Part shown: positions 1-5,812 of the stretch, piece after piece
Numbering within the stretch: the first letter of the stretch is position 1
Layout: each line of letters opens with the position of its first letter
Virus record (IMG/VR): IMGVR_UViG_3300027974_001530
DNA length: 64,000 nt
Reading direction: 5' to 3' (one strand)
Origin: a virus
Taxonomy: Duplodnaviria > Caudoviricetes
Position numbers and translations under genes: made by a program
Notes under the pieces: model-generated
Databases searched by the model: none
The model's input: the letters and a program-made list of their open reading frames with translations, nothing else
Told to the model about the DNA's origin: nothing

Positions 1-2681
1 CCATCTACTATATTTAAATCACCAATATTATATAAATTAATCCCTGAAACAATATTAATTTCTTTATTAAAAATTTCAGATCCTTTTGTATCTTTAATTA
101 TTAGTTTTCCATTACCAATCATATTTTTATTGTTTAACACAACTTGAAAATCTCCAGAACTAGGATTTGGAAATATGAGAAAATAACCTTTTGAATTTCC
201 ATTACAAATAACATTTATTGGTCCATACTCTTTATTCACTCCGTCTATGTCATATTGAAGAAGTTTATAATAGTTATTTCCATCAATTGCGTTTTCATCT
301 TTTGTCGTGTAGGTTAACTCTTGAGTTGAGTTTCCTGCCGAATTCAAAGTTGTTAATTTAGACCAATTAATACCATCTCTTGATTTAAGAACATCAAAAT
401 AGTCAGAGTTATGTTCGGTTGCCGTTTTCCAATTTAAAGTAATTAAGTTGTTATTACAAGACCCATCAAAAGATAATAGTTCCACAGGAAGAGCACCATT
501 AGTAATAATATTAAAAAATCTGGTTTGAGTTCCACAATTTGAAGCGTTTGATACCGTAACCCTAACAGAACCATTAGTTGTTGTCTGTGGCCAAGTAAAT
601 GTAATTGATGGAGAGTTAGAATTTGGAACGTTTATCCAAAGTTGTGCGGTTACGGACTGTGTGTATGCCCATTGGTATGTTGCGTTTGCTACCGGTGTTA
701 TTGAATAACTTTCTTGTGTTCCGGCAATTATGGTATTATTACCAGATATTGTAGACACAAAACCAACAGAAGGATTTACGGTTATTGTTGTTGAAGTTGA
801 TGCCGAACATCCATTTGCCGTTGCGGTTAATTGATAGGTCTGTGTAGTCGTAGGAGAAGCAAATGGACTTGGAGCACTTGCATTTGTAAGTCCGTTTGAA
901 GGTGTCCATAGATATGTTACACCGGGAGAAGACCCACAAGATGATATTGATTGTGTTATGCTCTGTCCACCAACTAAACTTCCACTTAGGACCGTTGTTC
1001 CGTTACAAGTTACCAAATAATTTGCCGTGTTGTCATTCCATATTCCTTGAGTTTCCACATTAAATGTATATGGGCCATTTGCCGATGAACCGATTGGAAT
1101 TATATTTGTTGACCCTAAACCATAAGGTCCACCTGAACCAATTACAGCCCCTAAACTATTTGTTAAAGTCCAAGAACTTTCGTCTAAGAATCCACTGGTG
1201 GAGATGGTTACAACAAGATTTCCTGGTGATGACACTCCACTAATGTTAGATATCAATTGGGTATTTGATCCGTTACATATTGTATTGGTTGCCGCACTTA
1301 TAGTTACAGTGGGATTAGGGTTAACTGTTATTGTTGTTGAAGCGCACCCACTACTAAAAAGACCTCCGTTTAGATTTCTCGCATAGTATGTAGTGGTTGA
1401 TGCAGGACTTACCGAGATGGAATTTCCAGTTGACACGAAAGTGGATGCACAACCTCCTATATACCAATAAACCACACCCAAAGCGCCATTTGCGGTTAGA
1501 GTGGTAGATGATCCATTACAAATAGTATTTTGTGTCGCAGATATTGATGTTGGGTCTGCTGGCGGGGGAGATATACAAGTTAGACCAATAGAAAAACTAC
1601 TACTTGCGCTATACCCATGAACTAATATATAGTAATTTGTTCCAATTGACGAAGTCCATGAAAATGAGGCTGATGAACTAGAACAAGCGGGCCCAAAATC
1701 ATCATTACCTCCAACACATGATAATGTTGAGCAATTAGGACCACTAAATACAGACATTTTACTATCCCATGCCGTTGCACAAAGATTTGCGGTCATAATT
1801 TGTCCGTTTCCTGAAATAACATACCAAACACCGGGTTGTGTTTGACTAACAGAACATAAACCATTTTCACCCGTTCCAGAGTTAGTTGCATTTACGGTGG
1901 TTCCTGATAGTGTTTGACCACAAGTAATTGGAGTTGAGTTACATACTAAATCGTTGGATGGGGGTGGTGGTGGTGCACAAGTTAGACAAGTAATATAAGA
2001 TGTTCCACAACTTGAAGCAGTTCCACAAGTGTTATTTGTGTTGTAATGAACAAAATATGTTCCTGAGGACGGACAAACCCAATTTAGTGGAGAGTTTCCA
2101 CTAGTTACTACAGTACCATTATAAGTTCCAGATCTAACTGTGATATATCCACCTAAATTGTAATATGATTGATATGTTTGTCCTGCAACACAAGAATAAA
2201 TTGTATTATATTCAGTTTGGTATTGACAAGTACTGATGGTTACAGTTGTTGGTGTTGATGGTGCAGTTGCCGTCATGTAAGAGGAAGTATTAGTACATGG
2301 GCCGGCAGCAACTGCGGCACAACTACCTAATACTGTTTGTCCTCCCGTAGTTGCGGTTCCGGCAACTGGTTGTATAGTATTGATTATGATAGATCCTGAG
2401 CCATTTAGAACCTGTATACGCATTTCGGAAGGGTAAGACCCTGCGAGTGTTCGGTATACTCTAATGGTTGACCCAACAGATGCGGTAAATGTAGAATTAG
2501 TAGGACCTAATCCAACACAACTTAAATTAGATAAAACGGTTACTCCGTTAACGGAAACTGCGACTGTTCCTCCATTCCACCCATCACCAAAGGTATCTGT
2601 TCGTTTAATAGTGTGGAGACATGATTGAGAAAATAAGAAAGATGAAAATAGAACAAAAAGTCCAAGCAATATATTCTTCAT
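1..2681 (-). CDS. Secreted multi-domain adhesin-like protein with Sec signal peptide and T9SS (Por) C-terminal sorting domain; runs off the window edge (>=893 aa); absent from the ORF track
   Basis: Translated by hand from ATG 2681: MKNILLGLFVLFSSFLFS|QSCLHTIKRTDTFGDGWNGG. Later segments include PPSNDLVCNSTPITCG, DSKMSVFSGPNC...GGNDD, the Ig-like TICNGSSTTLTANG...SPASTTTYY, GALPVELLSFDG, NYYKLLQYDIDG and LIFPNPSSGDFQV. No stop in the many lines checked; the frame is open at base 1. Confidence 0.9.
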   Translation of the reverse strand, partial: MKNILLGLFVLFSSFLFSQSCLHTIKRTDTFGDGWNGGTVAVSVNGVTVLSNLSCVGLGPTNSTFTASVGSTIRVYRTLAGSYPSEMRIQVLNGSGSIIINTIQPVAGTATTGGQTVLGSCAAVAAGPCTNTSSYMTATAPSTPTTVTISTCQYQTEYNTIYSCVAGQTYQSYYNLGGYITVRSGTYNGTVVTSGNSPLNWVCPSSGTYFVHYNTNNTCGTASSCGTSYITCLTCAPPPPPSNDLVCNSTPITCGQTLSGTTVNATNSGTGENGLCSVSQTQPGVWYVISGNGQIMTANLCATAWDSKMSVFSGPNCSTLSCVGGNDDFGPACSSSSASFSWTSSIGTNYYILVHGYSASSSFSIGLTCISPPPADPTSISATQNTICNGSSTTLTANGALGVVYWYIGGCASTFVSTGNSISVSPASTTTYYARNLNGGLFSSGCASTTITVNPNPTVTISAATNTICNGSNTQLISNISGVSSPGNLVVTISTSGFLDESSWTLTNSLGAVIGSGGPYGLGSTNIIPIGSSANGPYTFNVETQGIWNDNTANYLVTCNGTTVLSGSLVGGQSITQSISSCGSSPGVTYLWTPSNGLTNASAPSPFASPTTTQTYQLTATANGCSASTSTTITVNPSVGFVSTISGNNTIIAGTQESYSITPVANATYQWAYTQSVTAQLWINVPNSNSPSITFTWPQTTTNGSVRVTVSNASNCGTQTRFFNIITNGALPVELLSFDGSCNNNLITLNWKTATEHNSDYFDVLKSRDGINWSKLTTLNSAGNSTQELTYTTKDENAIDGNNYYKLLQYDIDGVNKEYGPINVICNGNSKGYFLIFPNPSSGDFQVVLNNKNMIGNGKLIIKDTKGSEIFNKEINIVSGINLYNIGDLNIVD

Positions 2682-2729
2682 AGTAAAAATAAATAAAATA
2701 AAATTATTTACTCTCTTGAAGAATCTTTT

Positions 2730-2776
2730 TAGGAAACCCCCATCTTCCATGGGCCGGTCGAGTTCACTAATAAATA
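2730..2776 (-). promoter_or_regulatory. TATTTAT late-type motif (2776-2770) followed by a GC-rich leader hairpin upstream of the T9SS gene
   Basis: Minus strand reads TATTTATtagtgaactcgaccggCCCATggaagATGGGggtttcc, a GC island in AT-rich DNA. Confidence 0.5.
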
Positions 2777-2839: not shown

Positions 2840-4096
2840 TTATTTAATCTTCCAATCTTTAATTTCGGTTTCTATTTTTCTTTTACCGTATTTTTTTTCC
2901 ATAAGTTTCTGGTGTAAATCCCAATTTAATATAGATTCGTTTGTTTGTTCTTTCTCATCAGGAATAAGTGAATATATTTTAGAAAGTCTTTTAATTAATT
3001 TTGTTGCAACATAATTAAATCTTTCGCACTCATCAACAAAGAACCGTTCTTCTTTATTTCGGTATCTAGCAATGTGGTTTAAAAACTTATTTCTAACTTT
3101 CTCCAATCCTTCACTATTATTATCTTTAACCATATGCCCCATACCCATCATTCTCATAAATGCCGCGGCTCTATCATTCATATCCTCTGTCATTCTATCA
3201 AAAATATCTTTTTTAGCACTTATTAGATTAATATAAACCAAATCCATAAGTACATATATTTTTTTATCTTCAGACATATCTTCATAAGGTACTCCAGCAT
3301 GTGATAATAAAGAATCAATTCTATCCATTTGTTCGTGTAGTTTTTTAACTAAATTAGTATAACTAAAATATCTAATTTCTTTTAGTTCTTTAACTACTTT
3401 ATCGTTTTCAAAAAATTCTCTAAACTTTTCTTTTGTAATACCGGTTAATTTCATTCTTGTTGCAATTTCAGTTGGTCTAACAAGGTTCTCAACGTGTTGA
3501 ATAAAATAACTGTGTCTCATAAATTCATTAATCACTGGAATTCCAAAGTTTAATCCTGAACTAGTGTATGCTTGGTAATCAGCATCTTTACCTATCAAAT
3601 CCGTTTCTTTTTTTTGTTTATCAAACTTATGTTTAATTTCGTGAGCAATTACAGATATAAATTCAACCTTATCTTTACTAAAATAGTTATAAATGTCTTC
3701 AGAATCCCAATTATCCTCATTTGATCCAAAATTTAAAGATAATTCAATACTATTATCTAATTTATGCACCTTCATTAATATTTTTTTATCAAAATTAAAT
3801 TGGCTTGCAACTCCAGCAGACATCATAACAAGAGGTCCATCATAATCATCCATTTCGTTAATTTCAACTCGTAATTCTAACTCGTGTATTTTATAATCAG
3901 ATATTGTTAAATCTAAATTGTTTTCAGTAAATGTTTGTGTGGTATTGTAATCGTCCATACCTTTTAATAGATTCAAAATGATTTCATATAATTTTTCTGC
4001 TGATTCAATAATACCTTCTGGAACACCAACTGCCTCACTTAATAGATTTTTTACTATCAAGTCCATTTGTCTTTCTGTAATAATAATTTTTGTCAT
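2840..4096 (-). CDS. Putative virion/head-associated protein with an HExxH zincin-like motif
   Basis: N-terminal KIIITERQ...LLSE leader, VIAHEIKH motif, and TATTTAT at 4107-4101. Confidence 0.6.
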   Translation of the reverse strand: MTKIIITERQMDLIVKNLLSEAVGVPEGIIESAEKLYEIILNLLKGMDDYNTTQTFTENNLDLTISDYKIHELELRVEINEMDDYDGPLVMMSAGVASQFNFDKKILMKVHKLDNSIELSLNFGSNEDNWDSEDIYNYFSKDKVEFISVIAHEIKHKFDKQKKETDLIGKDADYQAYTSSGLNFGIPVINEFMRHSYFIQHVENLVRPTEIATRMKLTGITKEKFREFFENDKVVKELKEIRYFSYTNLVKKLHEQMDRIDSLLSHAGVPYEDMSEDKKIYVLMDLVYINLISAKKDIFDRMTEDMNDRAAAFMRMMGMGHMVKDNNSEGLEKVRNKFLNHIARYRNKEERFFVDECERFNYVATKLIKRLSKIYSLIPDEKEQTNESILNWDLHQKLMEKKYGKRKIETEIKDWKIK

Positions 4097-4122
4097 ACAT
4101 ATAAATATTATGGTGTTGCGAT

Positions 4123-4776
4123 TTAACCCACAACACCAACTAATCCATCCAAGTGATGATCTCCTGACATATCAGAACCAACTGTTCTTTTATCCATTAT
4201 TTTAATGATATCAGAAATACTATATGGATCCATCCCATTACCATCAACACCAACGTCCATTCTTCTACCATTACCAAATTTTCTATTTTCCGGTAAGTGA
4301 ACGTGCCCATGAAGGTGTATTACACCTTTGTTTAGTCCATTCCAACTTTGTAGTGGGTAGTGACATAACACAAAATCTTTACCTTCAATGTTCACTTCCA
4401 AATAATGTTGAACACTTAAAAACCTTTTTTGAACAAAATCATAGTTTCTGTCAATATGGTGATCGTGATTCCCTAATATTAAGTGAATGTTGTGACAAAC
4501 CAACCTTTCAAGAAAGATTCCAATATTATCAAATCCACCAAATGAAACATCACCCAACATAATTAGAGTGTCTTCCTGACCCACAAAATGATTTATACCA
4601 TCAATCAAACGTTCATTCATCTGTTCAATAGTTTGAAAGTCACGAGTAGAACCCACCGGTACTTCACCATCTTGTGTTCTCCAATTGGTAGTTCCTCTTA
4701 CAATATTTTTGTGACCGTAGTGTGTATCACTTGTAATCCACACTTTTCCTGTTGTCAATATTTTTTTAAAACTCAT
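4123..4776 (-). CDS. Calcineurin-like metallophosphoesterase
   Basis: Motifs SDTHYGH, LGD, GNHD, CHYP and HLHGHVH. Confidence 0.9.
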   Translation of the reverse strand: MSFKKILTTGKVWITSDTHYGHKNIVRGTTNWRTQDGEVPVGSTRDFQTIEQMNERLIDGINHFVGQEDTLIMLGDVSFGGFDNIGIFLERLVCHNIHLILGNHDHHIDRNYDFVQKRFLSVQHYLEVNIEGKDFVLCHYPLQSWNGLNKGVIHLHGHVHLPENRKFGNGRRMDVGVDGNGMDPYSISDIIKIMDKRTVGSDMSGDHHLDGLVGVVG

Positions 4777-5162: not shown

Positions 5163-5165
5163 ATC

Positions 5166-5378
5166 TTACGCCTTTACCCAACCAAAATTATTTCCAGGAT
5201 TAACTTTAATCATCCCTTTTTCTAACAAATCAAAAGCAATATTCCAAGCCTTGTACGCGATTACTTTATCATAACCCTTTTTATCTTTAGTGGTGTAAAA
5301 AACATAATCAAATTGCCATACAACACCCTCTCTTTCCAAGAGATCCATAAATAATTGTTCTTTCTTTGTTATTTTCAT
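5166..5378 (-). CDS. Hypothetical early protein (start revised to MKITKK)
   Basis: The ATG at 5378 sits just downstream of a TATCTTTG promoter; the ORF-track extension crosses a terminator. Confidence 0.75.
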   Translation of the reverse strand: MKITKKEQLFMDLLEREGVVWQFDYVFYTTKDKKGYDKVIAYKAWNIAFDLLEKGMIKVNPGNNFGWVKA

Positions 5379-5500: not shown

Positions 5501-5776
5501 CTATTTTGTCACAAGTGCCTCAATTTTACTCTTAACTTGTTCTACCATTGTTATTTCCTTTATGTTTGTAACAATAACAGAGTCTTTTAGAATTCTATTA
5601 GGTATGTTCACAAAAAATGTATCTCCATTGAAGAATGTAAGGTCTTCTCCTAATTCAACACACCCGTGTATCATTTTAAGGAACAATTTAAATTGTATTT
5701 GGTCCATGAAAGTTTCGTTGATAAGATCACCAAACTTTTCATTCATAACTCTAATATTAAAACCCGTCTTATTCAT
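5501..5776 (-). CDS. Hypothetical early protein (start revised to MNKTGF)
   Basis: ORF with a TATATTTG promoter at 5788-5781. Confidence 0.75.
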   Translation of the reverse strand: MNKTGFNIRVMNEKFGDLINETFMDQIQFKLFLKMIHGCVELGEDLTFFNGDTFFVNIPNRILKDSVIVTNIKEITMVEQVKSKIEALVTK

Positions 5777-5780
5777 ACCA

Positions 5781-5812
5781 CAAATATACATTATTTATTT
5801 AAAAACCACAAA
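5781..5812 (-). promoter_or_regulatory. Bacteroidota housekeeping promoter
   Basis: TTTG (5812-5809), 20-nt spacer, TATATTTG (5788-5781). Confidence 0.75.

Follow-up and report, generated by a model that had tools for sequence, protein, structure and literature searches.

Do phages encode proteins that leave the infected cell through their hosts' type IX secretion system (T9SS)? The question is raised by the left end of a stretch of 64,000 nucleotides (the window) of IMG/VR record IMGVR_UViG_3300027974_001530 (Duplodnaviria; Caudoviricetes), where a first-pass annotation made from the letters alone had placed an open reading frame (ORF) of at least 893 amino acids (aa) with the build of a T9SS cargo. 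The ORF is real, with 893 codons on the minus strand that begin with an ATG at 2681–2679 and remain open at the window edge (Table 1). A full-length ortholog (L007:10001–12745) is 915 aa long and 94.6% identical in aa sequence to the window copy, which thus lacks only its last 22 residues. The ratio of nonsynonymous to synonymous substitution rates (dN/dS) between these two copies is 0.21, and the gene, hereafter the cargo gene, is therefore under purifying selection. We consider it likely that its product is a binding protein that is exported by Sec and then by the host T9SS, and that alters the surface of the infected cell. A further in-frame ATG, at 2750, would lengthen the ORF by 23 codons, but the conserved leader in which it lies is non-coding, with a frame that relatives do not keep, and the start is therefore placed at 2681.

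The two ends of the predicted protein carry the features expected of such a cargo. At the N-terminus is a signal peptide for Sec and signal peptidase I (SPI) with a Lys in the n-region, a 14-residue hydrophobic core and an FS/Q junction (..FS/QSC..), in which the Gln predicted at +1 fits the Bacteroidetes Q-rule (PMC5837995). Of the 115 family members, 110 have a junction that fits [STAG]-Q-(S/T)-C, which agrees with the earlier reading of a Sec signal cut before Gln, and no lipobox was found in the signal peptide of the cargo protein. The C-terminus was read in the first-pass annotation as a T9SS type A architecture from its LPVELLSF and IFPNPS motifs, and profile matches in the orthologs support this. 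In the full-length ortholog P0002 (95% identical) the C-terminal sorting domain (CTD) scores 27.9 bits against TIGR04183 (cut-off 23; domain scored alone) and aligns to profile positions 1–72 of 72, and the concern that the CTD might be truncated beyond the window is met by the same 95% identity, which places a complete CTD just past the edge. PF18962 is matched by all 25 family CTDs tested (best E 3e-10), and a divergent relative in locus L130 scores 29.1 bits. Given the end-to-end profile alignment of the ortholog and the PF18962 matches of all 25 of these diverse tails, the type A CTD appears genuine for the family and, by way of the 95% identity, for the window gene.

A structural model of ortholog residues 735–915 (m1d58bca213fc; mean predicted local distance difference test score (pLDDT) 87) has an FN3 domain followed by a seven-stranded sandwich. 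The former has FN3 structural matches with Z of 10–11 and a root-mean-square deviation (rmsd) of 2.0–2.5 over 81–98 residues; the CTD (model residues 98–181; seven strands; pLDDT ~90) is a compact beta sandwich, with structural matches to the DUF3244 protein BT_1867 (Z 9.7, rmsd 2.3, 80 residues) and to the C-terminus of PorU. An NCBIfam scan of the window protein gave no match because the CTD is cut at the window edge. Type B CTDs (CHU_C / TIGR04131) had no match in Pfam and NCBIfam scans at E ≤ 1, despite the presence of Ig_7 'CHU_C associated' domains, and no second CTD gene was found in the window with a hidden Markov model (HMM) built from the family CTDs.

Between these ends the protein is composed of beta domains. 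An AlphaFold model of residues 20–378 (m98f73aa6e0c6; pLDDT 89) has three beta-sandwich/jelly-roll domains, which among solved structures come closest in fold to the ColG collagen-binding (PPC-type) tandem, to CUB domains and to the Bacteroides surface glycan-binding protein SGBP-B. The AlphaFold clusters closest to the model bear the names of PPC, 'T9SS-like galactose binding' and 'secretion system C-terminal sorting domain' proteins, and the module has 4088 relatives at E ≤ 0.001, with giant Bacteroidota T9SS proteins among them. Pfam family PF19081 (Ig_7) matches residues 374–455 (E 2e-9) and a second stretch, so that both the Ig_7 match and the PPC/CUB-like folds of the model support the adhesin-like Ig/PPC-like domains proposed from the letters. 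The mature protein contains 29 Cys, which fits folding in the periplasm, and no catalytic domain was detected in any scan. The cargo is thus predicted, in part from these models, to be a non-enzymatic, multi-domain, adhesin-like putative binding protein of ~915 aa. A repeat relationship between D1 and the region at 520–640 is not claimed, the common WN..V..NG.TVLS motif being weak (E 0.04).

Table 1. Positions in the window of the cargo gene, its domains, its upstream elements and the cassette junction
Feature	Position	Strand	Remarks
Cargo coding sequence	3..2681	-	Codons 1–893 of ~915; last 22 codons and stop lie beyond window position 1
Sec/SPI signal peptide, aa 1–19	2625..2681	-	Predicted; read from the sequence by inspection; Gln at +1 (Bacteroidetes Q-rule)
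N-terminal binding module (putative), aa 20–375	1557..2624	-	Three Cys-rich beta-sandwich/jelly-roll domains: D1 (DTFGDGWNGG motif), D2 and PPC-like D3
Middle region, aa 374–734	480..1562	-	Ig_7 (CHU_C-associated Ig-like) repeats and further Ser/Thr-rich beta domains
FN3-like domain, aa 735–831 (LPVELLSF...NYYKLLQYDIDG)	189..479	-	Always directly before the C-terminal tail (family alignment)
T9SS type A CTD, aa 836–893	3..176	-	First 58 of ~80 residues, cut by the window edge
Lineage-variable hairpin	2684..2713	-	Ends a few bases before the start codon
Invariant leader core (ACTCGACC...CAAGAGAG)	2711..2763	-	From alignments and RNAalifold; predicted 9-bp hairpin on CCCAT/ATGGG
TATTTATTA box, promoter-like	2768..2776	-	Fixed 5–8 nt upstream of the invariant leader
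Cassette/backbone junction	2858..3013		Inside the 3′ end of the 418-aa neighbour gene; G001-like match from 2858 upward, L007-like match from 3013 downward

The cargo gene is phage-borne. Its relatives are found at 35 viral loci, including contigs of 217, 263 and 292 kb, and 560 proteins match at E < 1e-5, all of them metagenomic. In at least seven independently assembled contigs the cargo gene lies directly after a homolog of window gene 2840–4096, and in L007 the phage genes shared with the closest relative of the window resume right after it. The 292-kb contig (G004) is 99% complete according to CheckV and has genes for a large terminase and for a capsid protein of the T4 gp23 type (213 bits). 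When 20 large window proteins were compared with PHROGs the few that could be named were a tail fibre, an SbcC-like protein and a phosphoesterase only, and the phage identity therefore rests on the relatives with gp23 and terminase. The genes next to the cargo gene are non-structural (phosphoesterase, kinase-like) and lie outside the fibre cluster. The GC content at third codon positions (GC3) of the cargo gene is 0.208, and the mean of 28 other window genes is 0.209±0.034; its total GC (0.37 vs ~0.31 for the window) is higher, and the excess comes from codon position 2 only, with a high GC2 resulting from its Ser/Thr/Gly/Cys-rich composition. Contig depth is equal for cargo and backbone in three lake metagenomes (~21x in the independent metagenome X4), and one X4 contig spans 2750–2893 without a difference, which connects the leader with the neighbouring phage gene at its 3′ end. 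Against the possibility of a chimeric assembly with host DNA stand both this contig and the at least seven contigs with the same junction.

No close full-length copy of the cargo was found in cellular genomes among 185,579 species representatives, and the best cellular matches are partial, with 46–64% identity, in metagenome-assembled genomes (MAGs) of lake Flavobacteriales and Crocinitomicaceae. The synteny in viral contigs, phage-like GC3, equal depth and lack of a close cellular copy together exclude host contamination for practical purposes, and the earlier view of the gene as integrated in the phage holds. The gene belongs to a T4-like jumbo phage that is uncultured, comes from lake water and measures ~290 kb. 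As judged from sequence similarity, the most likely host is a freshwater bacterium of the order Flavobacteriales, since it is these lake MAGs that hold the closest cellular homologs; the translocon SprA is encoded by all five of the Flavobacteriales/Crocinitomicaceae MAGs with the closest cellular homologs (E down to 1e-163). GenBank phages include no close relative of the cargo protein, and only its FN3-like domain matches four huge phages. These matches of the LPVELLSF-type domain alone have 35–42% identity and are in the uncultured huge phages LR756500.1, LR756502.1, LR756504.1 and LR745206.1 (460–640 kb). The cargo-carrying 263-kb contig (G003; IMGVR_UViG_3300032321_002024) is classed as a provirus in IMG/VR despite its terminase and T4-like jumbo appearance, and host-like genes such as the cargo gene may cause this call.

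The cargo gene is also accessory and flexible, mobile from one phage lineage to another and polymorphic within populations. G001, which is the closest relative of the window, is 97–99% identical to it from position 2858 onward, lacks any relative of the cargo gene and has a 121-aa ORF instead. The L007 backbone is diverged, with ~70–78% DNA identity to the window and 41% identity in the neighbour protein, and yet the cassette is 92.6% identical between the two, from 170 nt inside the 3′ end of the neighbour gene through the whole cargo gene. It is this combination, a near-identical backbone without the gene and a diverged backbone with a near-identical cassette, that demonstrates the flexibility. 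Assembly graphs from the three lake metagenomes have branch points at 2858/2864 and 2902/2904, and because they branch on both sides of 2864–2902, several variants coexist at the junction in the lake samples. The loose contig ends at 2858–2904 have no exact match to G001 or to any of the other loci compared. If the junction is artificial, the window would at most unite two phage variants that occur together, by way of the ~40-nt shared segment 2864–2902, and the gene would still be phage-borne.

A conserved leader precedes the cargo gene. Its 53-nt core is near-invariant across 32 distinct sequences whose proteins diverge to ~55% identity, and in the hairpin predicted by RNAalifold two variable positions correspond to G-U to A-U and A-U to G-U changes; a small stem in the core has a C-G to U-A exchange in eight sequences. 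The second, lineage-variable hairpin folds in 27 of 28 distinct versions with at least five different stem sequences (mean z −2.2 vs shuffles). The window has one copy of the core, as does every one of 57 viral contigs, in 50 of which it is followed by a cargo-matching gene within 15–38 nt; in three further contigs (L139, L150 and L173) it is followed by a signal-peptide protein with a different N-terminal body. An Rfam search of the leader returned chance-level matches only and no family, and the leader pattern is not above the control rate in five candidate host MAGs and was not found in 401 genomes of their order. The leader appears to be a phage-specific structured 5′ untranslated region (UTR) that travels with the cassette. 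Its role might lie in mRNA stability, in translational control as an operator, or in timing.

Upstream of the core is a putative promoter, the TATTTATTA box, at whose position the relative L139 has TATAAATA, the T4 late-promoter consensus. The heptamer TATTTAT, which was cited in the first-pass annotation as a phage motif upstream of the gene, occurs at 2689–2695 and 2770–2776, and in sense orientation it lies within 60 nt upstream of the start of 16 of 67 genes (4.2±1.9 in shuffles). Over the whole window it is not enriched (53 found vs 60 expected), and its use as a signal of phage origin is reasonable but weak; synteny is much the stronger evidence. Sense copies of TATTTAT lie 4–21 nt upstream of many start codons.

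Members of the cargo family are constant at their two ends, the signal peptide and the FN3-like domain plus tail, and vary in what these enclose. Lengths of about 150, 196 and about 620 aa are found for the middle region across the family. In P0119 the three-domain N-terminal module is replaced by an unrelated 206-aa body and the remainder is 90–95% identical to P0002, and bodies are likewise swapped in L173 and L139. The tails are of three kinds, the 80-aa type A CTD and two short tails of 37–45 residues, and the short tails follow the FN3-like domain in about a quarter of the listed family members (e.g. P0122, P0015, P0096 and L173), as well as in a 622-aa relative in the complete phage G004. 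Examples of the short tails are ...GIIIEIYEDGSIKKIIK and ...VGVYLRVCEEGVKRFIKFY, which by eye resemble the last strands of the CTD. The G004 phage also has a second, unrelated T9SS cargo near 287.7–289.4 kb, corresponding to L042 1468–3171 on the minus strand, with a cohesin-like domain at 23.6 bits (cut-off 24.1) and a strong type A CTD (46–51 bits). It is possible, though less likely than not, that these jumbo phages maintain an export cassette, in which a cis-regulatory leader, a constant signal peptide and a constant FN3-CTD tail are combined with recombined bodies and exchanged among diverged lineages. If so, the leader would time or limit translation of the cargo, perhaps through binding of a phage protein to it, and a phage population could reprogramme the host surface in a strain-specific manner.

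From the architecture of the protein we infer an export route, a surface location and a biological role as follows. The cargo gene would be transcribed from the phage TATTTATTA-type promoter with the conserved structured 5′ leader, and the pre-protein would cross the inner membrane via Sec, where SPI would cut before the Gln, which would then be cyclised as in host proteins. The Cys-rich beta-sandwich domains would fold in the periplasm with formation of disulfides, and the FN3-like domain and type A CTD would be recognised by the host T9SS. The T9SS would move the cargo across the outer membrane, with removal of the CTD and with the protein either attached to the surface or released, and the PPC/CUB-like and Ig-like domains may then bind a glycan or protein ligand such that the adhesive or receptor properties of the infected cell change. 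Sensitivity of Flavobacterium to phages is tied to the T9SS and to gliding surface proteins (e.g. PMC9804748), and interference at the surface by the cargo is plausible for that reason. Receptor masking, aggregation and particle attachment may be the benefits to the phage; superinfection exclusion and jamming of the T9SS or of gliding were further suggestions of the first-pass annotation.

Several observations weigh against this interpretation. The 58 CTD residues before the window edge reach only 17.8 bits against PF18962 (profile positions 1–40 of 75; cut-off 27), and the PF18962 score of P0002 is just below the same cut-off at 26.3 bits with the whole profile aligned, so that of the two profiles proposed earlier as a check the full ortholog passes the cut-off of TIGR04183 and the truncated window copy falls short of PF18962. 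The short tails of 37–45 residues have no PF18962 match at E ≤ 1 and are recognised by no CTD profile, and because about a quarter of the listed members end in them, T9SS dependence may not be universal in the family. Metatranscriptome X24 has five short contigs with 95–99% identity that cover 3439–4739 only and none on the cargo gene, and is uninformative on its expression. A late-type promoter and Ig/FN3-like domains would equally suit a virion protein.

That last point leads to an alternative in which the cargo protein is a virion component, either a decoration or a fibre, and the N-terminal hydrophobic stretch and the CTD-like sandwich have no role in secretion. Ig-like, FN3 and PPC-like domains are common on phage particles, a TATTTAT-type box is found at many other genes of the same phage, and the Thr-rich fibre genes in the window have an equally high GC2. 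A virion role is nonetheless quite improbable given the conservation of the SPI signal with Gln at +1, the 29 cysteines of the mature protein and the CTD profile match in every one of the 25 members tested, as well as the placement of the gene among non-structural neighbours, not in the fibre cluster, and its dispensability in the 97–99% identical phage G001. Mis-assembly or mis-binning of host DNA with phage DNA could be argued from the raised total GC of the gene, its host-like domains and the graph branches at 2858–2904, with no single short contig tying the gene to the backbone beyond 2904. This is scarcely credible, since the GC excess is confined to codon position 2 and GC3 equals the phage mean, the same gene-neighbour junction recurs in the independently assembled viral contigs, the gene is flanked by phage genes to either side in L007, depth does not differ between cargo and backbone in the three metagenomes and the cellular genomes searched hold no close full-length copy. 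Even in the worst case it is two phage variants that are joined.

The remaining alternative shares the export route and differs in the destination, the cargo being a soluble factor that binds glycans or polymers, or one that acts on nearby cells or particles, and not an anchored adhesin or receptor mask. In Flavobacterium, many proteins with a type A CTD are set free instead of being anchored, and the N-terminal domains of the cargo are similar to carbohydrate- and collagen-binding modules. The cargos of the Bacteroidota 'Cryophage' are also secreted enzymes (PMC7468147). A soluble role is harder to rationalise for a protein that has no catalytic domain, and long Ig/FN3 stalks are typical of surface-displayed proteins; we hold it to be unlikely, and prefer the interpretation in which the exported protein modifies the surface of the infected cell.

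Proteins that a lytic phage exports to the envelope of the infected cell are familiar from phage T5 Llp and similar proteins, which provide superinfection exclusion and may mask receptors. Those are small lipoproteins or inner-membrane proteins that are expressed early and have a known receptor target, whereas the present protein is a 915-aa multi-domain predicted T9SS cargo. Phages of Porphyromonas gingivalis encode secreted proteins that follow the Q-rule (PMC10367356), and phage-encoded T9SS cargo has itself been described. Bellas et al. (2020; Nat Commun, PMC7468147) found that Cryophage (76 kb) carries three T9SS type A cargo genes, all variable, a case that they termed a unique occurrence; as roles they put forward surface modification, competition and superinfection exclusion. 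The present phage is similar in that a Bacteroidota phage encodes T9SS type A sorting-domain proteins and in that the cargo genes vary between otherwise near-identical phage genomes, and the roles suggested for the two are alike. It differs in being a T4-like jumbo phage of ~290 kb from lakes and not a 76-kb phage from cryoconite, in having a cargo without a catalytic domain where those of Cryophage are an endoglucanase, a GH39 protein and a PA14 protein, and in the conserved structured 5′ leader and the swapping of bodies between constant ends. The locus is therefore a new example and not a new principle, and its novelty is modest (PMC7468147); what is new is the invariant phage-specific ~53-nt leader with a co-varying hairpin, the constant ends around swappable bodies, and the abundance in freshwater jumbo phages.

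Cellular T9SS type A adhesin-like proteins (e.g. the MAG proteins MCP4123056.1 and the HYR domain-containing HKR05411.1) have D2/D3, Ig_7, the FN3-like pre-CTD domain and the type A CTD in common with the phage cargo, and likewise a Sec signal that obeys the Q-rule. They are chromosomally encoded and 1449–3344 aa long with up to 21 repeats, and the phage cargo is far smaller and only ~35–64% identical to them over parts. The phage family is further distinguished by its own fixed N-terminal three-domain module, phage codon usage and the phage-specific leader. The predicted seven-strand sandwich CTD after an Ig/FN3-like domain also resembles the arrangement in P. gingivalis RgpB and PorZ (PMC11285876), although sequence identity to the RgpB CTD is very low and structure searches ranked FN3, DUF3244 and PorU instead. 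The P. gingivalis type involves PorU cleavage and attachment to anionic lipopolysaccharide (A-LPS), both of which the Flavobacteriales host may or may not share.

There is barely any documentation of Bacteroidota phages that use the host T9SS to bring proteins of their own to the surface or the outside of the infected cell, and the 560 relatives suggest that such use is widespread among freshwater jumbo phages, which are abundant. Natural variants that carry the gene occur alongside others that lack it in the same lake samples, which offers a direct ecological and experimental comparison of what a phage gains from remodelling the host surface, and the conserved leader RNA is a separate candidate regulatory element.

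The neighbour gene at 2840–4096 (minus strand; 418 aa) starts with MTKIIITERQ, contains an HEIKH (HExxH) motif and has no PHROG or Pfam match; lineages that share 95% identity in the cargo gene share only ~41% in this neighbour. The stretch 5164–5371 (~208 bp) is a second, small site of variation, with no counterpart in G001 and with metagenome contigs that diverge at 5163. Downstream of the cargo gene, contigs of two lake metagenomes contain an exact 31-nt copy of window 5758–5788, located within the 456 nt that precede window position 1. The segment 5758–5788 is the start region of a 96-aa ORF (5501–5791) and may be a small repeated gene-start or promoter segment.

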